Source: Clostridia bacterium (lineage in GTDB: Bacteria > Bacillota > Clostridia > Oscillospirales > CAG-272). Taken from it: DNA of 59,946 nucleotides. Below the pieces are notes generated by a model, which worked only from the letters and a program-made list of their open reading frames with translations, searched no databases and was not told where the DNA came from. Positions 2,636-58,509 of the stretch are shown here, piece after piece (the first letter of the stretch is position 1; each line of letters starts with the position of its first letter). The DNA is taken from NCBI GenBank assembly GCA_017467165.1, contig JAFTST010000033.1:1-59946 (forward strand), written 5' to 3'. A program made the position numbers and the translations under genes.

Positions 2636-3169
2636 ATGTATATTTGGGTGGCGGTAGACGTAGACGAGCAGGTTATAGAGCTTCGCGAATATGCAGAGAG
2701 CTATGCTAAAGAACACGGCGTGTCATCCCCGACGCTTAGCCTGCCGTTTCACATTTCGCTGAAAATCTCCTTTGAAATCCCGAACGAGAAGAGGGTGGAG
2801 GTGACGCGCGATATACGCGACCTCTTTAAATCTCAGGAGCCTTTCACAATACCTGTCGGAGCAGTCGAGAAAAACGCTTCGATACTATGGTTAACCATAG
2901 GGGACAGCCCGGAGCTTGCCTCCATACACAAGAGGCTTGACGGGCTGATGCTTGAAAAATACGGTGTCGCGGAGCACGAATTTGACAAGGATTTTATCTT
3001 TCACGCCTCTATTCTGATATTGAACAGTGAGGAGCATCTTTGTCGCGCGAAGGACGCTGTTAAGAGTATCAATATACCGAGCGAGCTTGTGGCAAGGAAG
3101 GTAATTATCGGCTCATCAACGAGTGGAAAGGCAGGCAGCTTCAGCGTGGACGAGGAGATTGTGCTATAA
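2636..3169 (+). CDS. 2H phosphoesterase / 2'-5' RNA ligase family protein
   Basis: Two HxS motifs (PFHISL, IFHASI); GGAGG SD. Confidence 0.8.
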   Translation: MYIWVAVDVDEQVIELREYAESYAKEHGVSSPTLSLPFHISLKISFEIPNEKRVEVTRDIRDLFKSQEPFTIPVGAVEKNASILWLTIGDSPELASIHKRLDGLMLEKYGVAEHEFDKDFIFHASILILNSEEHLCRAKDAVKSINIPSELVARKVIIGSSTSGKAGSFSVDEEIVL

Positions 3170-3415
3170 TAATGCTTTTCCCCTTGCTTTCATCTTGTGG
3201 CAAAAATTGACTAGCTCATTGCTCGAGTATGCTCTTGGGCTCGGTGAGCTACCCTATTCGAGGATCTTATTTAATAACACACGGGGTTGGGTCAATGGCT
3301 TTAAATTAAGCTATTGGCTCAGCCTCTTTTTTCTTTGTAACGGTTGCAGCTTGCTGTCGAAAAAGAGTATATAATGTAATGGTGCTTCACCAAATACTAT
3401 AAAGAAGATAATTAT

Positions 3416-45550: not shown

Positions 45551-46137
45551 AGCTGTATTTATCAATTATCGGGGCGGCTATGCTGATTATTTCCGCCGTG
45601 AATATCTTTTTCGGAATTGGCGCGTGGTATTTCGTGCTACTCGCTGTCGTATGGTGCACGCTTCTTCAATTCGCTCTCGACGGACTCATAGCGATAATAA
45701 TTAACAAGATGCCCGACGGGTGGTTCGCTATCGATAACCCTCACTATCGGGTGACCGAACGGGAAAGAGAGCTGTACAAGAGGCTGAACGTAAGGCGCTG
45801 GAAGGACAAGGTCTGGGAGCTTGGGTGGCTTGGCGGCTTCAGCAAAAGGGAGCTTCGTGAGCCGGGAAGCCTTTCCTACCTCGAAAAATTCATTATCGAG
45901 TGTAACAAGGGTGTTCTTACTCACAGGCTTTCCTATCCCGTCGGCTTTCTGGCTATGCTCACTCTGCCGGGTATTATGCCCATGACGATAGCTCTTCCTG
46001 TCGCGGTAGTGAATTTGTTTTTAAATATCCTGCCCACTATCGTGATAAGACACAACACACCCTATCTCTTGTCTGCCTATAAGAGAATCGAGAAAAAGCA
46101 AAAGCTGAATAACGCTAAAACAGGCGGCGTCCTCTAG
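45547..46137 (+). CDS. Membrane protein resembling the CrtO glycosyl-acyltransferase family
   Basis: ERELYKRLNVRRWKDKV, KFIIE...H, N....IVIRHN.P pattern. Confidence 0.6.
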   Translation: MKLYLSIIGAAMLIISAVNIFFGIGAWYFVLLAVVWCTLLQFALDGLIAIIINKMPDGWFAIDNPHYRVTERERELYKRLNVRRWKDKVWELGWLGGFSKRELREPGSLSYLEKFIIECNKGVLTHRLSYPVGFLAMLTLPGIMPMTIALPVAVVNLFLNILPTIVIRHNTPYLLSAYKRIEKKQKLNNAKTGGVL

Positions 46138-46275
46138 ACGCCGCCTTAACTATTCGCGCTCGTTTCTATAATAATTTTCAGAGAAAAAATAAAAAAAGCG
46201 AAAACACTAACAAAACTTTAACAATTATGTGCTACAATGTAACTACAAAAGAAAATTTTCCCGGGAGGATAAAAT

Positions 46276-49322: not shown

Positions 49323-49360
49323 GCAAGAGTAACCGTTCGCCCGGGAGGTTGTTTTTTTAT
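49323..49360 (+). repeat. Array repeat copy 1
   Basis: gcaagagtaaccgttcgcccgggaggttgtttttttat. Confidence 0.95.
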
Positions 49361-49370
49361 GTAGGGGGGG

Positions 49371-49403: not shown

Positions 49404-49480
49404 GCGTGAGCAACGTGTTTGCATTTGCATTCTTCAATGGGCGTCGAAAGCTTAGCCCGTGGGACGTTGTTCACTTTTTT
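49404..49480 (+). ncRNA. Candidate structured sRNA 1 (closing-stem class)
   Basis: GTGAGCAACGT (49406-16) pairs with ACGTTGTTCAC (49464-74); inner gggc/gccc stem; T-run; own promoter. Confidence 0.65.
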
Positions 49481-49778
49481 ATTTCCCGTGGTATTTCCAC
49501 GGATATTTTTTTCCAAAATGTTTCTTTTTATCATGTCTGACGCGCTTCGCTATGTACATAGGATTTTTATCACGTTTATTAGGATTCGGATTGACTACCT
49601 CATTCAGATGTCTACCGTCACGTTCAGAATGCATTACCTTACGGTATTTATATTCACTATCCGAATGCTCGGATACTATCAAAGCCGGATGCCCAGACTT
49701 AAGATAATATCTGAAGTGGGGAAATGTTTCTTTTTTGAATCCTATGTTTTTACCCAGCTTATTCTTTTTGTTGGCGAT
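49479..49778 (-). CDS. Small basic PemK/MazF/ToxN-like protein T1 (probable ATC start; in-frame upstream ATG at 49907)
   Basis: FRYYLKSGHPALIV...VMHS...G..N...NPNP...PMY; AGGAGGTG SD 7 nt before ATC; fold call is by eye. Confidence 0.6.
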   Translation of the reverse strand: MANKKNKLGKNIGFKKETFPHFRYYLKSGHPALIVSEHSDSEYKYRKVMHSERDGRHLNEVVNPNPNKRDKNPMYIAKRVRHDKKKHFGKKYPWKYHGK

Positions 49779-49785
49779 TTTTTCC

Positions 49786-49951
49786 CACCTCCTATAAGTG
49801 TATTTGCATATCTCCTTGAAACTCGATTTAAAGGCTCCCATAATGCAGCTTGTTTCAACCTCAAGCTCCACGTTGTTATCCAAATCAATGATTGTTACTT
49901 TGTACATTTTTCTTTTTCCTTTCTTTTTAAGATAAATTTGCAAGAGTAACC
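49786..49951. repeat. ~165 bp segment duplicated at 51678-51844 (leader ORF MYKVTIIDLDN plus SD plus repeat start)
   Basis: cacctcctataagtg...aagataaatttgcaagagtaacc is near-identical in both places apart from a 3-nt indel and a few small differences. Confidence 0.95.
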
Positions 49952-49977
49952 GTCCGCCCGGGCGGTTAATTTTTTAT
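49940..49977 (+). repeat. Array repeat copy 2
   Basis: gcaagagtaaccgtccgcccgggcggttaattttttat. Confidence 0.95.
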
Positions 49978-49983
49978 AGGGGG

Positions 49984-50011
49984 TTGACATTTGTTGAAAT
50001 TATGATATAAT
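49984..50011 (+). promoter_or_regulatory. sigmaA promoter of array RNA 2
   Basis: TTGACA-16 nt-TATAAT with extended TG. Confidence 0.85.
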
Positions 50012-50016
50012 AATAA

Positions 50017-50095
50017 TGTCATCCGCGTTTAACGCATATTTGACCAGGATATTTTATATCCGAAGAAGAGGTTGGAAACAACCTCTTATTTTTTT
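50017..50095 (+). ncRNA. Candidate structured sRNA 2 (three-hairpin class)
   Basis: gtca...tgac stem; ggatat/atatcc hairpin; aagaggttg-GAAA-caacctctt hairpin followed by T7. Confidence 0.65.
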
Positions 50096-50342
50096 AATGC
50101 CAATACATTTTTTTCTGATCCCATTTATTCAATCGAGTTTTCGTCTTAACAAGATACCTCTCTTGAATAGGTTTTCCCTTAAGAGTTTTTCGAAAAGTAC
50201 GTTTTTCAAGTCCGCTCGATTCAGGAATATCGGGGTATTTTTCAATGGGAATAACATCTTTACGTTTTCCATTCTTGTCATAAAGAGATGTAATCCTACG
50301 AACGTGCATTTCATTTGGATTATTATTCAATGCAACAATTCT
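50094..50342 (-). pseudogene. 5'-truncated basic PemK-like protein T2
   Basis: RIVALNNNPNEMHVRRITSL...KPIQERYLVKTKTRLNKWD; no SD or good start; 5' end overlapped by the tail of another gene. Confidence 0.55.
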
Positions 50343-50653
50343 AAGCTTATCGAAAGCTGTTCATCAATAGGTCCAATGTAATTACAATAAAGATAACTTC
50401 GTAAATTCTTATCGCTATCATAATACTGTGCCATCGTAATAAAACAATTTTCTGTCGAGCTTAAATAAGATAATTGATCCATCCCCATTGATGCCAGATC
50501 ATCACGTACTGACGACGTTGTAATATCTACATCATTATAATAAGTAAACGTCGCAGTTTCCGCCGGAACGGCAAAGGCGGAGAGCATTACCTCTCCGCCC
50601 AGCACCATAAGCAGCAAGAGGCACACCAGGGATAGTATTTTCTTTTTCTGCAT
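50327..50653 (-). pseudogene. 5' part of a secreted protein gene joined onto the T2 remnant
   Basis: AAAGGAGG SD and signal peptide (KKKILSLVCLLLLM...SAFA); ends abruptly overlapping T2. Confidence 0.55.
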
Positions 50654-50685
50654 TCATGCCTCCTTTGGTTTTATAGCATTTGCTA

Positions 50686-50713
50686 TTGACTTTTTTATTT
50701 TTCGTGGTATAAT
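50686..50713 (+). promoter_or_regulatory. sigmaA promoter of array RNA 3 (no repeat upstream)
   Basis: TTGACT-16 nt-TATAAT with extended TG. Confidence 0.8.
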
Positions 50714-50719
50714 GTCCCT

Positions 50720-50811
50720 GTAGATGATTCTCGCTGCCGCATCCTTATGCGGAAGTGTCGCCTCGGCGACCGTGACGAAAGGGCAAGATTTTGCCAAATC
50801 ATCTACTTTTT
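50720..50811 (+). ncRNA. Candidate structured sRNA 3 (cloverleaf-like)
   Basis: GTAGATGATT/AATCATCTAC closing stem encloses ccgcat/atgcgg, gtcgcc/ggcgac and ggcaa/ttgcc hairpins; T-run. Confidence 0.7.
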
Positions 50812-51015
50812 CTTTTTCTTACCAGCCTTAAGTTTTTTCAATATTGCCATATCATCCTTATGTATACGATATTTTTCATCTGGTAGCTGGTACTCTGATT
50901 TGGGTCTCGGTTCCCGAAAAGGAACAGCGTAGGTTTTACGGCGATTCTCGTCCGGATCAACGTTATGCTTGAGAGGAACGTTTTCTTCACCACGCGTCGT
51001 TTTACTCGAGGTGAA
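50803..51015 (-). pseudogene. 5'-truncated basic PemK-like protein T3 (not in the ORF track)
   Basis: FTSSKTTRGEENVPLKHNVDPDENRRKTYAVPF...KYRIHKDDMAILKKLKAGKKKKK*; upstream in-frame TGA at 51034-36; no start codon. Confidence 0.65.
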
Positions 51016-51038
51016 ATGTATGGAAAGGTGGATTCATT

Positions 51039-51167
51039 TTGAAGGGCAAAGCCTTAAAAACCATCGACGTTGTCTGCGTCGTTCTTGAGCTTATCTTCGA
51101 AATTGTTTTACTACCCGCCAAAGTCGTTAAAGCAATTTTGAATATAATAAGCATAACCACAAAATAA
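51039..51167 (+). CDS. 42-aa hydrophobic peptide
   Basis: GAAAGGTGG SD, TTG start, MKGKALKTIDVVCVVLELIFEIVLLPAKVVKAILNIISITTK*, ending just before repeat 3. Confidence 0.5.
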   Translation: MKGKALKTIDVVCVVLELIFEIVLLPAKVVKAILNIISITTK

Positions 51168-51171
51168 ATTT

Positions 51172-51209
51172 GCAAGAGTAACCGTCCGCCCTGGCGGTTG
51201 TTTTTTTAT
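51172..51209 (+). repeat. Array repeat copy 3
   Basis: gcaagagtaaccgtccgccctggcggttgtttttttat. Confidence 0.95.
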
Positions 51210-51217
51210 GTAGGGGG

Positions 51218-51245
51218 TTGACTTTTGCTGAAATTATGATATAAT
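51218..51245 (+). promoter_or_regulatory. sigmaA promoter of array RNA 4
   Basis: TTGACT-16 nt-TATAAT with extended TG. Confidence 0.85.
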
Positions 51246-51250
51246 AAGTA

Positions 51251-51322
51251 CAGAATTCAAGCGCAGGCCGTTTAATAAACGGAAATCGGGAGGAGACTCC
51301 AAAATTGCTTGGATTCTTTTTT
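51251..51322 (+). ncRNA. Candidate structured sRNA 4 (closing-stem class)
   Basis: AGAATTCAAGC (51252-62) pairs with GCTTGGATTCT (51307-17); inner ccgttt/aaacgg and ggag-GAGA-ctcc hairpins; T-run. Confidence 0.65.
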
Positions 51323-51671
51323 ACTTGTTAGACTTTTCATAATGCTTGTTAAATTTATGTCTTTTCTTACGGTCCGCATTGCTCATACGCCATACGCCCT
51401 TCGGCTTATCCTTCAAATAAGAATTTAATTCCCAAACAGGAACACTAAAACGTGATTCTCTTTTTGATGATTTAGACGGGTTTGGATTATGGCGTAATTT
51501 TTCGGTAGGCTGTCCATAAAACTCTTTAGAATGAGTTATTATGTTTATTTTTGACCTCTTTTTATGACGTACAGTTACATAAGCAATATGACCTTCACCC
51601 CGAGGATTCACCACCTCGAGATTTTTATTGTACCTAAATTCGTTTTTTCGTAAATATTTGTTTTTAGAGAT
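51321..51671 (-). CDS. Small basic PemK/MazF/ToxN-like protein T4 (probable ATC start)
   Basis: EFRY...GEGHIAYV...IITHSKEFYG...KLRHNPNP...ESRF; AGGAGGTG SD 6 nt before ATC. Confidence 0.6.
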   Translation of the reverse strand: MSKNKYLRKNEFRYNKNLEVVNPRGEGHIAYVTVRHKKRSKINIITHSKEFYGQPTEKLRHNPNPSKSSKRESRFSVPVWELNSYLKDKPKGVWRMSNADRKKRHKFNKHYEKSNK

Positions 51672-51676
51672 TTTTC

Positions 51677-51802
51677 TCACCTCCTATAAGTGTATTTGCA
51701 TATCTCCTTGAAACTCGATTTAAAGGCTCCCATAATGCAGCTTGTTTCGACCTCAAGCTCCACGTTGCTGTTATCCAAATCAATGATTGTTACTTTGTAC
51801 AT
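51677..51802 (-). CDS. 41-aa leader ORF upstream of T4
   Basis: MYKVTIIDLDNSNVELEVETSCIMGAFKSSFKEICKYTYRR*; its TGA overlaps the SD of T4. Confidence 0.4.
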   Translation of the reverse strand: MYKVTIIDLDNSNVELEVETSCIMGAFKSSFKEICKYTYRR

Positions 51803-51832
51803 TTTTCTTTTTCCTTTTTTTAAGATAAATTT

Positions 51833-51869
51833 GCAAGAGTAACCGCCCGCCCGGGAGGTTATTTTTTAT
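51833..51869 (+). repeat. Array repeat copy 4
   Basis: gcaagagtaaccgcccgcccgggaggttattttttat. Confidence 0.95.
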
Positions 51870-51879
51870 GTAGAGGGTA

Positions 51880-51908
51880 TTGACAACGCACCTGCGTTGT
51901 GCTATAAT
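51880..51908 (+). promoter_or_regulatory. sigmaA promoter of array RNA 5 with a palindrome across the spacer
   Basis: TTGACA-17 nt-TATAAT with extended TG; acaacgca-cc-tgcgttgt inverted repeat at 51883-51900. Confidence 0.85.
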
Positions 51909-51913
51909 TACGG

Positions 51914-51987
51914 ACGTAACGATCGCTTCTTTTGAAGCTGGCTGATGCTTTCGCAAGAAAGACGTTTGGCACGGTCGTTACTTTTTT
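51914..51987 (+). ncRNA. Candidate structured sRNA 5 (closing-stem class)
   Basis: GTAACGATCG (51916-25) pairs with CGGTCGTTAC (51972-81); inner gcttc/gaagc and ctttc-GCAA-gaaag hairpins; T6. Confidence 0.7.
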
Positions 51988-52295
51988 CTTTTATTAAGAT
52001 ATTTTTGCTTCGCACGTTCTCCGTACATTTTTGCTTGAGCGTAATCCTTTTCGGTCATTTTTGCACTGCGTGGACTATCGTAATTTTTCATTGAATCGAC
52101 GGTGCCTTGCCTACGTAAGAATGACGTCTTCCCGTTACCGAGAACGTCCGTTTCGCACTTATAGTTAGTTGAATTGCGCCCTTTTTTCGGCTGCGAAGTC
52201 AACCCCACGGAAACGTGCTTATCCTCGATATCATCAAGGATAAGGTGCTGATGCCCTCCCTTCTTGTCAGGATGCCTTTTCAATATAACCGGCAC
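51978..52295 (-). CDS. Small basic PemK/MazF/ToxN-like protein T5 (start uncertain)
   Basis: GGHQHLILDD...VSVGLTSQPKKG...N...TSFLRRQG; frame open to 52355 but no clear SD. Confidence 0.6.
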   Translation of the reverse strand: MPVILKRHPDKKGGHQHLILDDIEDKHVSVGLTSQPKKGRNSTNYKCETDVLGNGKTSFLRRQGTVDSMKNYDSPRSAKMTEKDYAQAKMYGERAKQKYLNKRKK

Positions 52296-52345
52296 AAGCT
52301 TCTGACGAACGTGTTTTCCGGTTTGTTTAATTGACTTGTTTCTTT

Positions 52346-52513
52346 TTACCGTTTTTCAGCTCTGCTCAGCCTCTTACCGCGAAAGCTCTGCGCAGTGAAA
52401 ACATCCTTATGGTAATTTTCTTTAGCAGAAGCTTGAGCGCCGCCGCGGTCGTTCCAATAGTAAGCCAAATTCTAATGGGCCAACTGGGACTTTTCAAATT
52501 TTGTTTTTGCCAT
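52346..52513 (-). pseudogene. Small basic ORF with an internal TAG
   Basis: AAGGAG SD, then MAKTKFEKSQLAH*NLAYYWNDRGGAQASAKENYHKDVFTAQSFRGKRLSRAEKR*. Confidence 0.45.
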
Positions 52514-52581
52514 TTTTTATATCTCCTTATTGATTTTTTGATTTTTGAGTGTTATACTGAAAGAAAAATGAGAGGTGGGTT

Positions 52582-52743
52582 ATGAGATTGTACGCATTGC
52601 TATCAAGAGTAAGTCCAGATGATATATCTGACATTTCCGGAGGCGGTATCAATTTTTCAACTACCGAATTTATAATTGGTTTGCTATTAGGCATAATAGG
52701 AACTTTACTTATCATGTATGCAATAAAAATCACAAAGAATTAA
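52582..52743 (+). CDS. 53-aa single-TM peptide (not in the ORF track)
   Basis: GAGGTG SD; MRLYALLSRVSPDDISDISGGGINFSTTEFIIGLLLGIIGTLLIMYAIKITKN*; promoter TTGATT-17-TATACT at 52530-52558. Confidence 0.6.
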   Translation: MRLYALLSRVSPDDISDISGGGINFSTTEFIIGLLLGIIGTLLIMYAIKITKN

Positions 52744-52761
52744 AAATAAAAAAGGTGAGAT

Positions 52762-52950
52762 ATGATTCAATATTTTAAGTTATTTAACGCAATAGATACA
52801 CCAACTGATACATTTACAGGGAATTCTGCGCAAATTGAAATAAACCAAGGTATGCATCTACCAAGCTTATTCATAGGAATAATAATTGGAATAGGAATAG
52901 CATCGGTTATTTGGTTAATTATTGTTTTACTTAGAAATAAAAAATCTTAA
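52762..52950 (+). CDS. 62-aa single-TM peptide
   Basis: AAGGTGA SD; polar/acidic N-terminus, LFIGIIIGIGIASVIWLIIVLL TM, basic tail RNKKS. Confidence 0.65.
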   Translation: MIQYFKLFNAIDTPTDTFTGNSAQIEINQGMHLPSLFIGIIIGIGIASVIWLIIVLLRNKKS

Positions 52951-52983
52951 GAGCGAACAATCAGCTTACTACAAAGTAATTTT

Positions 52984-53020
52984 GCAAGAGTAACCGTCCA
53001 CCCGGGCGGTTATTTTTTAT
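52984..53020 (+). repeat. Array repeat copy 5
   Basis: gcaagagtaaccgtccacccgggcggttattttttat. Confidence 0.95.
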
Positions 53021-53028
53021 CTAAGGGG

Positions 53029-53056
53029 TTGACTTTTTAGAAAACTATAGTATAAT
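53029..53056 (+). promoter_or_regulatory. sigmaA promoter of array RNA 6
   Basis: TTGACT-16 nt-TATAAT. Confidence 0.8.
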
Positions 53057-53060
53057 AATA

Positions 53061-53134
53061 GCGTCATCTTGTTTGACACCAGGTACAATAGTATCTGAAG
53101 CGGGAACCGTGATATGTGGTTGCCCGCATTTTTT
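53061..53134 (+). ncRNA. Candidate structured sRNA 6 (three-hairpin class, related to RNA 2)
   Basis: gtca...tgac; caggtac/gtatctg; gcgggaacc...ggttgcccgc hairpin followed by T6. Confidence 0.65.
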
Positions 53135-53237
53135 ATTTGTATTTTGATGGAATAATTTTACGCATATCCCATTTATTCAAACGTGTTCTTGTTTTTTTCA
53201 AGAAGCGCTCTTGAATGGGATCACCGGTGCGAGAGCC
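53133..53237 (-). pseudogene. C-terminal remnant T6, homologous to T2
   Basis: GSRTGDPIQERFLKKTRTRLNKWDMRKIIPSKYK* versus T2 TLKGKPIQERYLVKTKTRLNKWDQKK; in-frame TAA immediately upstream. Confidence 0.7.
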
Positions 53238-53308
53238 TTACAACCGTGACAATTCCCGATCGCATCACTCTCATTGGCGGCGGAATAACTGAAGTCAACT
53301 TATATTAA
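53228..53308 (+). pseudogene. Single BspA-type LRR remnant
   Basis: CESLTTVTIPDRITLIG matches the C.SL..ITIP..V..IG repeat consensus. Confidence 0.45.
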
Positions 53309-54800: not shown

Positions 54801-54875
54801 GGCTCGTTGGTCAAGCGGCTAAGACACGGCCCTCTCAAGGCTGAAACGGGAGTTCGATTCTCCCACGAGTCACCA
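54801..54875 (+). tRNA. tRNA-Glu (anticodon CTC)
   Basis: GGCTCGT acceptor stem pairs with ACGAGTC; TGGTCAAGCGG D-arm; cggcc-CTCTCAA-ggctg anticodon arm; GTTCGA T-loop; encoded CCA. Confidence 0.95.
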
Positions 54876-56465: not shown

Positions 56466-57386
56466 ATGATAAAAATCGAGGCAAAATTAAAACTCAAAAA
56501 ACACATATGGAATAATTATGCCAATGGGAGCTTTGATTATTCTTCTTGTCACATCTGTTTTTCTTTTGAGGAAAAGAATAAAGAGCTAGAAATGTTTATT
56601 AGCATTTTAACAAAAGAGTCTAGTGAAGAAATTTCTCCCGTTCTTATCGAAATTTTTGACTTTCTATATTTGGCGTGCGGAACAATGCCCTATATTGTTT
56701 ATTACAAAGAAAATGATGTAGAAAAAGATTTGTCACGTTTTTCGTGCCGCTTTTTCCCATCAAAACAATTTTTCCATAATGAACATTTGATAGATATAAA
56801 CAATTCAACATTAAATGAAACGACACTCGAAAGCATAAAAAATACTATTAGGAATAAACCCTTTGAGATATTTTGGGCATTTACTGCACTAACATCACAA
56901 GCCTATGAAAAGATATATGCCGAACATAAAATAACCTTGTTGCTACAATGCTTTGAAGGGTATATTTTTAACAAAGAAACTAAGTATCAATTGCGTACAG
57001 TATCGTTTAAGGAAAGAATTACGGAAATTATTAATGTGTTGTTTGAATATGAGGAAAAATATAATACCGAAATATTAAAAACTTTAACTATCACTAAAGA
57101 CGATTATTTAAAAGTACTTACTGATACAAGGCATCAATTTTCACATTACATAAGTAAAAACAATTCGTTGAGCGAGGGCAAAGATTATATAATCAATTTT
57201 GTTTTATTGCATTACATATTCCGTATTTACCTATTGAGAGAGGTCAATGTTATTCCAAAAGAAAAAAATATAGAAGAATTCTTAAAATCGGTATATGATT
57301 GGATAAACTCTTTAAAAGATAACAACTTCAAAGAATATAAGTCAGTTGCTTATAGTATGAATTTAATATTTCAACATTTTAACTAA
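56466..57386 (+). CDS. HEPN-domain protein (ApeA-like), putative anti-phage RNase
   Basis: LLQCFEGY...SFKERI...DTRHQFSHY (E...Rx4H HEPN signature). Confidence 0.65.
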   Translation: MIKIEAKLKLKKHIWNNYANGSFDYSSCHICFSFEEKNKELEMFISILTKESSEEISPVLIEIFDFLYLACGTMPYIVYYKENDVEKDLSRFSCRFFPSKQFFHNEHLIDINNSTLNETTLESIKNTIRNKPFEIFWAFTALTSQAYEKIYAEHKITLLLQCFEGYIFNKETKYQLRTVSFKERITEIINVLFEYEEKYNTEILKTLTITKDDYLKVLTDTRHQFSHYISKNNSLSEGKDYIINFVLLHYIFRIYLLREVNVIPKEKNIEEFLKSVYDWINSLKDNNFKEYKSVAYSMNLIFQHFN

Positions 57387-57867: not shown

Positions 57868-58509
57868 TTAATACCTCACTGTATCTATGACGCTCGAGCA
57901 GCCGCCTTCTATGGACTTATACTTTAATATCTTACCGTCGGCAAGGCAATGCACCTCACATTCAAAGTCGGTATCCGCCTCGTTGCCGAAGACGTAGTAG
58001 GTGGTTGTTCTTCTTGTTTCGCTATAGTCAAAGTGGGATGAGGTTGGATGGTGGTAATCACCGTTTGAAAAGGTTTCTACTGCTTCGTATGTTGTCATAG
58101 CATCGAAATCCACGGAGCTGCCGCTGAATATAATCTGAAAGCTCCTTCCCACTCCCGAGAAAAGAAGCGCGCCGAGGTTAGTGCTATTATATTCCTTGCT
58201 CATATTCGCATTTGAGAGAGTCAGACGCTCAAAGGACTTGCAGCCTCTAAATGCCTCTGTGCCTATCGCTAAAAGATTATTTCCGGTATACACCTCTCTG
58301 AGAGCCACGCAATTTTCAAAGGCGCGGTTAAAGATAAATTTGCAGGATTGCGGAAGTATAATCCTTTCTACCGAAGCGCAACCCGAGAATGCAGCAGTGT
58401 TGATGGCATAGACGCCCTCAGGCACCTCGACAACAGGCTCCGTTCCCGTATATTTATCAAGGGATTTCTTTCCCTGGTGTACCTCACCGAAAATAAAGCG
58501 GTTTTCCAT
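57868..58509 (-). CDS. BspA-type leucine-rich repeat (LRR_5) protein
   Basis: KYTG...VEVPEGVYAINTAAFSGC.S...IILP...AFENC...IGTEAFRGC; AAGGAG SD. Confidence 0.8.
   Translation of the reverse strand: MENRFIFGEVHQGKKSLDKYTGTEPVVEVPEGVYAINTAAFSGCASVERIILPQSCKFIFNRAFENCVALREVYTGNNLLAIGTEAFRGCKSFERLTLSNANMSKEYNSTNLGALLFSGVGRSFQIIFSGSSVDFDAMTTYEAVETFSNGDYHHPTSSHFDYSETRRTTTYYVFGNEADTDFECEVHCLADGKILKYKSIEGGCSSVIDTVRY

Follow-up and report, generated by a model that had tools for sequence, protein, structure and literature searches.

The window analysed here, i.e. the whole 59,946-nucleotide (nt) stretch of contig JAFTST010000033.1 from a Clostridia bacterium, contains between 49.3 and 53.3 kb six plus-strand cassettes of one design, in which a promoter is followed by a structured RNA that faces a basic open reading frame (ORF) on the minus strand. 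The locus is probably a low-GC accessory island with a recombining and decaying array of six cassettes, each combining an RNA antitoxin with a toxin of the MazF fold in a toxin-antitoxin system of a type not described so far. In the arrangement that we propose, a constitutive sigma-70-type promoter would drive one structured RNA of 70-95 nt per cassette, and the intrinsic terminator of this RNA would touch or overlap the 3′ terminus of the facing gene, which encodes a small, very basic protein with the MazF/Kid/CcdB fold, the protein being taken as an endoribonuclease-type toxin and the RNA as its antitoxin. The antitoxin role is suggested by the combination of a MazF-fold protein, the lack of a protein antitoxin, and the presence of a strongly promoted and structurally constrained RNA. 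The GC content of the island (30-45%, against 51% for the genome) and its absence from 12 genus-mates that share its left flank point to a foreign origin.

The six promoters score 10 to 12 out of 12 against the consensus (Table 1), with a TG-extended −10 box in five of them, and the six RNAs, 70-95 nt in length, each terminate in a T-run and are more stable than their shuffled counterparts (z between −3.5 and −5.2), in agreement with the original prediction, made from the letters alone, that all six promoters had kept near-consensus boxes and all six RNAs their stems and T-runs. The region as a whole contains 20 promoter-like and 13 terminator-like sites, as compared with 12.4 ± 3.6 and 4.7 ± 1.9, respectively, in shuffled sequences. 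A conserved 9-bp hairpin with a T-run, hereafter the boundary element (direct-repeat families D1/D2), is located ahead of five of the six promoters, and within the organism's own 1.38-Mb assembly it is restricted to the array. RNA1, RNA3, RNA4 and RNA5 (class A) have a long closing stem, formed by the 5′ and 3′ ends, which encloses two or three inner hairpins, and RNA2 and RNA6 (class B) consist of three consecutive hairpins. In every module the minus-strand basic ORF enters the 3′ end of the RNA, with its stop codon in, or a few bases away from, the T-run or the closing stem, so that the RNA abuts or overlaps the toxin stop codon in 6/6 modules, as it also does in the T1 loci of other genomes. 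No Rfam 15 covariance model matched the six array RNAs, or the related RNAs of 8 other loci, at E ≤ 1. The RNA1 architecture is found 3′ of T1 homologs in other genomes, RNA3 homologs with compensatory changes are present in G019 and G412, and RNA5 was kept together with the C-terminus of T5 in G010 and G008. A second terminator-like hairpin with a T-run (49486-49512, plus strand) follows closely on the RNA1 terminator, within the final codons of T1, and is encoded by the conserved Pro-Trp-Lys-Tyr C-terminus of the T1 family.

Table 1. Positions of the components of the cassette array in the window
Feature	Coordinates	Strand	Remarks
Boundary element, copy 1	49323..49368	+	D2 repeat, 5 copies; directly 5′ of P1
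Promoter P1	49371..49398	+	TTGACT-16-TATACT, TG-extended; 10/12
RNA1	49405..49480	+	Class A, three-way junction; −37.6 kcal/mol, z −4.2; T-run overlaps T1 stop codon
T1	49479..49943	−	Body 49479-49778, 99 amino acids (aa) from ATC at 49778; fused in frame to 41-codon leader (ATG 49907)
Boundary element, copy 2	49940..49985	+	Direct-repeat family D2
Promoter P2	49984..50011	+	12/12
RNA2	50018..50095	+	Class B, terminator is last of three hairpins; z −5.2
T2 remnant	50094..50342	−	First 31 residues of 113-aa family missing; homology from residue 32
108-aa signal-peptide ORF	50327..50653	−	Unrelated DNA joined to truncated T2; no family match
Promoter P3	50686..50713	+	11/12; without preceding boundary hairpin (alignment)
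RNA3	50720..50812	+	Class A, closing stem and three inner hairpins; z −4.5
T3 remnant	50803..51024	−	First 46 of 117 residues missing; homology from residue 47
Boundary element, copy 3	51172..51217	+	D2 repeat; contains run X4 joint 51188->53001
Promoter P4	51218..51245	+	11/12
RNA4	51252..51322	+	Class A, closing stem and two hairpins; z −4.4
T4	51321..51671	−	Apparently complete; 116 aa from ATC at 51671; in-frame GTG 51680 inside Shine-Dalgarno sequence (SD)
41-codon leader ORF	51677..51802	−	TGA stop within T4 SD; repeats D4, D6
Boundary element, copy 4	51833..51878	+	Direct-repeat family D2
Promoter P5	51880..51908	+	12/12
RNA5	51915..51988	+	Class A, closing stem and two hairpins; z −3.7; 3′ strand overlaps T5 stop codon
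T5	51978..52355	−	Basic 125-codon open frame; no canonical start before GTG 52295
Two small membrane-peptide ORFs (53, 62 aa)	52582..52950	+	Inside array, tied to module 5 in runs X5, X6
Boundary element, copy 5	52984..53029	+	Direct-repeat family D2
Promoter P6	53029..53056	+	11/12
RNA6	53063..53135	+	Class B; z −3.5; near relatives in G452 (intact toxin) and G014 unit 3 (no toxin)
T6 remnant	53133..53234	−	Last ~30 residues of T2-family toxin (homology from residue 84 of 113; 83 missing); joined to leucine-rich repeat (LRR)-type gene fragment

To judge from their reading frames, three of the toxin genes (T2, T3 and T6) are dead and one (T5) is doubtful, which leaves T1 and T4 as intact genes, with weak starts. 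The loss of the T2, T3 and T6 5′ ends at junctions with unrelated DNA had been proposed from the letters, and indeed 31, 46 and 83 N-terminal residues, respectively, are missing, the 5′ DNA of the T3 remnant being an unassigned stretch unrelated to the T3 family; all three truncation breakpoints (3/3) lie on the ORF side and never inside an RNA, again as proposed. The lack of a clear start in T5, and the apparent dependence of T1 and T4 on an ATC start, held up equally well. The leader segments preceding T1 and T4 are about 98% identical in DNA sequence, and in both cases the end of the leader overlaps an AGGAGG, with the ATC 8-9 nt further on; T4 additionally has a GTG within the SD. In module 1, a TGA-to-TGG change and one extra A fuse the leader to T1, and homologous clusters span just the C-terminal 52-65% of the resulting 154-aa frame. 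The 41-codon leader was found in two copies, in its own genome only. Weak ATC or ATT starts in the same context occur in seven genes of the family (the other members being those at L011, L024, L029, L038 and L019), although most members use ATG, and this recurrence makes the weak start look like a real feature. Neither T1 nor T4 has an evident promoter of its own. With starts this weak, a leader coupled to the gene and no dedicated promoter, toxin output would seem to be held low. No intact paralog of T1-T5 was found in the organism's own assembly, which is 73.5% complete. In-frame stops and 5′ truncations recur among genes of the toxin families. The T3-like gene of L011 (G019:C60, minus strand, about 2936-3250) has an SD and an ATC start, and contains an in-frame TGA directly after Gly-His-Pro-Val, beyond which the frame stays open and family-like, so that either a pseudogene or a recoding site is possible. 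The fragment joined to T6 (53183-53308, plus strand) resembles a BspA-type LRR; 41 nt of it recur at 90% identity in G000:C28:4996-5036, and a fuller LRR_5 gene is located at 57868-58509.

The association between RNA and protein is not peculiar to this locus. We collected 55 T1-family loci from genomes, mostly of uncultured Clostridia, Eubacteriales and Christensenellaceae of animal guts, and limited the count to the 53 with at least 150 nt of downstream DNA. A convergent near-consensus promoter and an RNA ending at the stop codon are present in 53/53 of them (48 detected by promoter scan, 2 more by covariance model, and 3 by eye), and the pairing of RNA and toxin is thus conserved. The RNAs at T1 loci share a common three-way junction with conserved junction bases, and have very different stem sequences. 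Structure prediction with RNAalifold on a MAFFT alignment yielded the closing stem only, and a hand-drawn structure was therefore imposed on the subtype alignment; a covariance model, R1, was built on 18 RNAs and used to realign 34. In this alignment, which is fitted to the model so that the figures lean the model's way, both partners vary in 19 of the 21 pairs, and the paired fraction of cells is 90.3%; it falls to 35-55% when partners are slid by 1-3 columns, and 0/500 shuffles reach the observed values. A G-U pair is conserved in 23 of 26 sequences, and since it would be a C-A mismatch on the opposite strand, the fold belongs to the promoter-driven strand. A class B RNA is found at 20 of the 23 T2-family metagenome loci; the class B sequences did not align consistently enough for pairs to be counted formally, and their covariation was judged by eye. 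Each of the protein families tested (T1 and T2) thus has an RNA family of its own. At two T1 loci (L038 and L053), the region 3′ of the gene carries two different three-way-junction domains back to back in one promoter-to-terminator unit of ~142 nt, which suggests that composite antitoxin RNAs may exist.

In none of 49 T1 and T2 loci did we find a conserved small protein-antitoxin gene upstream; the same-strand neighbor mostly encodes 400-770 aa or is missing, and in other genomes the toxin gene closely follows a large gene. Two upstream proteins recur among L016-L092, one of 640-770 aa with a conserved terminal Gln-Gln-Asn-Ser-Tyr motif, and another of 450-680 aa with a C-terminal membrane helix and a basic tail. 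They have no Pfam or PHROG match, Atlas gives weak P-loop/Zot-type leads (0.85 or below), and they may mark an undescribed mobile element. An inovirus origin of the T1 and T2 loci was considered and is unsupported, as the upstream proteins match no Pfam or PHROG family and the Zot-type leads are weak.

The toxin proteins, 100-120 aa in length with 23-35% Lys+Arg, come from families of very different size: that of T1 has at least 450 clusters at 90% identity (about 100 aa, from metagenome-assembled genomes (MAGs) of Clostridia), that of T2 has 236 such clusters (about 110 aa), T4 has 33 representatives at 50% identity, and T3 has two relatives. Searches of Pfam, NCBIfam, PHROGs and PADLOC with the array ORFs gave nothing beyond chance-level rows at E ≤ 0.1, as did a search of PDB sequences with the T4-family profile. 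Models of the T4 and T2 families are β-barrels. For the T4-family AlphaFold model (predicted local distance difference test score, pLDDT, 90.0; predicted template modeling score, pTM, 0.82), the top 14 VIA-align matches are all MazF/Kid/CcdB or type III toxins, among them CptN (4rmo; Z 7.6, 100 aligned residues, root-mean-square deviation (rmsd) 3.2), ToxN (4ato; Z 5.5) and AbiQ (4glk; Z 5.3), with the first unrelated structure at Z 5.1, and the top of both structure searches is occupied by the MazF/Kid/CcdB superfamily alone. The T2-family model (pLDDT 89.8) has MazF of S. aureus at Z 9.6 (rmsd 2.9, 95 aligned) and CptN at Z 6.7, and its top 13 matches all belong to the same superfamily. By profile comparison, the T3 and T4 families are homologous (hhalign probability 96%, E 4e-9), T1 and T4 have a weak link (E 5e-4), and no link was obtained between T2 and T1. 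The T4 family was detected in 2/401 genomes of the order, the own genome included. A T4-like domain also forms the C-terminus (residues 1921-1985) of P0141, a 1993-aa polyvalent protein with ART-PolyVal and LPD3 domains. Polyvalent proteins of this kind belong to conjugative elements and phages, and the terminal position of the domain suggests that the toxin fold is also used as a fused, probably delivered, module.

Two modes of neutralization may be envisioned, and both could apply. We tentatively favor, at somewhat less than even confidence, direct binding of the RNA to the protein, as in type III toxin-antitoxin systems, since the toxins are non-membrane proteins, the fold goes beyond antisense needs, and there is no extra 5′ complementarity. 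The more doubtful option is that the RNA acts purely as an antisense to the 3′ untranslated region of the toxin mRNA, as in convergent type I systems; a toxin mRNA without room for a terminator of its own must indeed extend into sequence complementary to the RNA. Pairing of the small RNA (sRNA) with the toxin 5′ region, in the manner of type I systems, was rejected, because cognate pairs show no extra complementarity there (mean −31.6 versus −31.3 kcal/mol, p 0.24).

The same data bear on two quite different roles. The RNA and the basic MazF-fold protein could constitute a working ribonucleoprotein, or a sensor-effector pair (e.g. in defense), with the RNA as a cofactor, guide or regulator; junction bases and a three-way fold conserved beyond antisense needs, a separate RNA family for each protein family, and the high Lys+Arg content are all compatible with this role, which we nevertheless regard as improbable, because the frequent 5′-truncated proteins next to intact RNAs and the existence of RNA-only arrays would be hard to explain, and weak starts with no promoter fit a product that has to stay scarce. 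Even less credible, and in our estimate very improbable, is that the RNAs are by-products of a two-way terminator and an insulating promoter, or free-standing sRNAs unrelated to the ORFs. The closing stem with its T-run is a terminator, the complement of which could end the toxin mRNA, and tandem sRNA genes with their own promoters, such as LhrC and csRNAs, occur in other Firmicutes; but inner hairpins and junctions, not needed for a mere terminator, covary, the cognate sRNA lacks extra complementarity to the toxin 5′ region, and the 53/53 association with one protein family across many genera rules out unrelated sRNAs.

The window is a short-read MAG contig, and its array was compared with public contigs from four runs (X1, X4, X5, X6) of four studies. 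Cassette order and content differ between samples. In run X4, position 51188 is joined to 53001, the same position within two boundary hairpins, so that modules 4 and 5 and the peptide genes are skipped; another X4 joint (51677->49786) connects the T4 body, via the shared leader, to promoter 2 and RNA2, with 71 nt fitting either side. In runs X5 and X6, module 5 and the peptide genes are followed by 124 other letters and then by module 3 (joint 52962->50670). All of these alternative joints, from runs of three other studies, coincide with the boundary and leader repeats or adjoin them, and the variation in module number and order that the original prediction had suggested looking for is indeed there. 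We infer that the boundary repeats, plus the shared leader in two cases, would serve as substrates for homologous recombination, which would reorder cassettes between strains and delete toxin 5′ ends. The X5/X6 version of the 50670-51198 piece differs from the window by 31 substitutions, with the listed differences clustering in RNA3 (50714-50836): the closing-stem pair 50721/50805 has changed together, pair 50728/50798 is deleted on both sides, and four evaluable changes are in loops, a partial reading confined to the differences listed. This diverged RNA3 allele, seen in two other studies, adjoins the same truncated T3. The segment between the T3 remnant and the next boundary (51057-51185) has a summed contig depth of ~29 in run X6, against ~8 around it, on two contigs, and may be a separate repeat.

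Such variation might also mean that the array, or its module order, is a chimera of several strains assembled across repeats of 45-250 nt. In run X1, which covers the locus best, contigs break at every boundary repeat, coverage is low over 50349-50473, and none of the contig pieces listed extends across the entire array, so that the module order of the window is not independently confirmed, and other runs show other adjacencies. A chimera is nonetheless improbable, as each module (promoter, RNA and the adjoining toxin piece) is contained within single X1 contigs at 100% identity, the T3 junction lies inside single contigs of X1, X4, X5 and X6, i.e. in four studies, and the T6 junction inside those of X1 and X6; besides, a chimera would alter the order of the modules, and not their cassette nature. 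In 12 genus-mates that have the left-flank gene there is no array and no T homolog, and the DNA downstream of this gene is different in all 12, which marks it as a variable region; the boundary hairpin is not the native terminator of the left-flank gene.

The intactness of the RNAs next to broken ORFs was initially read as an antitoxin archive, in which selection has kept the RNA half of successive incoming modules. The components of this idea stood up, in that the T4 and T2 models have a MazF/CptN-like fold, the RNA partners are conserved, and T2, T3 and T6 are broken; the archive itself is just plausible. It would consist of orphan RNAs kept by selection as a constitutive antitoxin library against toxins of plasmids, phages and injected polyvalent proteins, and it would add to, rather than exclude, the explanation of the locus as a decaying cassette array. 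Several RNA-only arrays speak in its favor. In genus-mate G014:C2, a 0.9-kb segment flanked by two ordinary genes accommodates about seven promoter-RNA-terminator units, uninterrupted by any ORF; genus-mate G412:C14 has about five RNA-only units, including two RNA3-family paralogs that differ by compensatory changes; and metagenome locus L093 has four units and one 20-residue T2 remnant. In these arrays near-consensus promoters, folds and terminators are intact, and toxin remnants are tiny at most. The genus also provides a graded series, from an intact 112-aa T2-type toxin in G452, next to an RNA close to RNA6 and to G014 unit 3, through the 34-aa remnant of window module 6, to the RNA alone in G014 unit 3, with stem pairing kept through a G-C to A-U change. 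The strongly diverged RNA3 allele next to the truncated T3 still pairs, the own assembly has no intact T2 or T3 paralog, and a T4-like domain occurs in a polyvalent protein, a type of protein that mobile elements deliver.

At the same time, truncated toxins at the T2 loci L080, L082, L091 and L093, and the T1/T4 remnants at L069 and L018, adjoin RNAs that hardly differ from the RNAs of intact modules, so that these truncations appear to be recent. The G014 array lacks positional conservation in the genus: among 121 genomes searched (120 genus-mates and the own genome), unit-sized fragments alone were matched, in 8 other genomes. The compensatory differences may have arisen before the toxin was lost, the own genome, being incomplete, may encode a cognate toxin in its unassembled part, and the T1 family was absent from the IMG/VR viral contigs searched (27 pattern matches, 0 confirmed). 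Moreover, a live toxin forbids loss of its antitoxin, whereas loss of the toxin is free, and boundary-to-boundary deletions spare promoter-RNA units, so that the same asymmetry is predicted without any archive; the RNA genes would survive because antitoxin loss is lethal for as long as the toxin lives. Ordinary decay of toxin-antitoxin cassettes thus explains most of the pattern, and an archive is, on the whole, unlikely. The RNA-only arrays and the RNA3 allele next to a dead toxin do argue, if not strongly, for some continued function. The likeness to CRISPR or integron memory, which had been part of the same proposal, is retained in the boundary sites and the variable cassette order, but no IntI, Cas1 or Cas2 was found. 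No integrase or cas family is represented among the array ORFs or among ORFs of at least 130 aa in 42-60 kb (shorter ORFs outside the array were not scanned), and without any acquisition machinery found the parallel is only conceptual.

Several observations weigh against the interpretation of the locus as six MazF-fold toxin/RNA antitoxin cassettes. The fold matches are middling (Z 7.5-9.6), with Foldseek E values of 0.014 or above for the T4 model, and no sequence family in the family libraries or among PDB sequences matches the toxin proteins. T5 could not be related to the other families: it gave no profile match to the T4 family, its likeness to the other toxins, noticed by eye, was dropped when profile comparison did not bear it out, it occurs in only 1/401 genomes of the order (its own, and none of the 400 others), and elsewhere only a 24-aa remnant is seen in G010. 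The covariation figures lean toward the model, as stated above, and model R1 missed window RNA1 at E ≤ 1, its sole match in the window being a spurious-looking one at 46117-46148; membership of RNA1 in the family rests on the MAFFT alignment and on near-identity to the L016 RNA. In G019 the partners are discordant, as the RNA3 homolog faces a 104-aa ORF without T4 profile similarity, and the T3-like gene with the in-frame TGA faces an RNA other than the RNA3 homolog. The module order could be partly an assembly artifact, no RNA run is present among the listed sequencing runs with the locus, and a plain toxin-antitoxin model would not call for RNA-only arrays.

In comparison with known systems, the locus appears to work most like type III, but without the type III layout; it has the layout of type I without a type I toxin, and the MazF fold without MazE. 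With type III systems (ToxIN, CptIN, TenpIN, AbiQ/antiQ) it would share a toxin of Kid/MazF-like fold, an RNA antitoxin and the lack of a protein antitoxin, all predicted here, and the T4 and T2 models have one of their best structural matches in CptN, from the gut clostridium Eubacterium rectale. The type III toxins are nonetheless longer (155-170 aa in ToxN/CptN, against 100-120 aa here), and no match to a ToxN-type family was obtained. As described in PMC8860590 and PMC3401426, a type III antitoxin consists of tandem short repeats upstream of, and on the same strand as, the toxin, which cuts the array into units; the RNAs of our array are instead single non-repetitive three-way-junction or three-hairpin units, with their own promoter, in convergent orientation and with a shared 3′ end. 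The convergent type I systems found in Firmicutes (txpA/RatA, bsrG/SR4, fst/RNAII; reviewed for Clostridia in PMC6563280) are similar in having a convergent small RNA, a 3′ overlap and a shared terminator. Their toxins are small hydrophobic membrane peptides, unlike the soluble basic proteins of predicted MazF fold encoded here, and in the array-type RNA a tertiary-type fold covaries and its junction bases are conserved, features that a cis-antisense does not need. Type II systems (MazEF, Kid-Kis, CcdAB) have the same predicted toxin fold (Z up to 9.6), but no conserved protein-antitoxin gene lies upstream in the T1 and T2 loci, the array ORFs have no PemK/MazF Pfam match at E ≤ 0.1, and an RNA gene is present where type II systems have none.

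Orphan antitoxins can protect against incoming toxins (anti-addiction), as does the chromosomal ccd of Erwinia; RNA-antitoxin modules occur in tandem in the LDR and Sib/Ibs repeats of E. coli; and superintegrons contain toxin-antitoxin cassettes, in arrays that vary between strains. The present array differs from all of these in that several RNA families unrelated to one another stand side by side, each under a separate promoter and some without a toxin, and, unlike in superintegrons, no integrase or attC-type site was found at the array (array ORFs and those of at least 130 aa in 42-60 kb). Phages, too, are recorded in PMC3475682 as carrying an orphan pseudo-ToxI RNA. The literature searched, listings and abstracts outside subscription journals, yielded no account of MazF-fold toxins with convergent structured RNAs, or of orphan RNA-antitoxin arrays.

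If the RNAs are antitoxins, they would represent a fourth architecture of RNA-neutralized protein toxins, with convergent, single-copy, structured RNAs, and MazF-fold toxins that use RNA in place of MazE. Two or more large orphan families of proteins, those with at least 450 and with 236 clusters, would gain a likely function, as would several RNA families absent from Rfam. A bolder reading, and one that we consider rather unlikely, is that gut Clostridia have a new toxin-antitoxin class, in which a single structured RNA, made from a consensus promoter in the direction of the toxin gene, directly neutralizes a MazF-fold RNase, and in which chromosomal RNA arrays that have shed their toxins form a heritable, recombining immunity library, one that would guard against related toxins of mobile elements, including those that form the termini of injected polyvalent proteins. 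The variable and RNA-only arrays offer defined RNAs and toxins on which the idea of chromosomal orphan-antitoxin immunity can be tested, and, should the archive fail, the locus would still be a clear natural case of decay and recombination of toxin-antitoxin cassettes.

A few other genes are found in and around the array. Each of the two small peptides encoded within it has one hydrophobic helix, and a promoter-like site is located at 52530-52558. The first of them has Gly-Gly-Gly past a 20-residue leader, reminiscent of the double-glycine leaders of bacteriocins. A tRNA gene (54801-54872, plus strand, 59.8 bits) is located 1.5 kb to the right of the array. Further to the right, in a stretch of 31-33% GC, a 306-aa protein (56466-57386, plus strand) has an Apea-like HEPN domain (E 4e-7), and is another candidate for an RNase-type defense protein or toxin.

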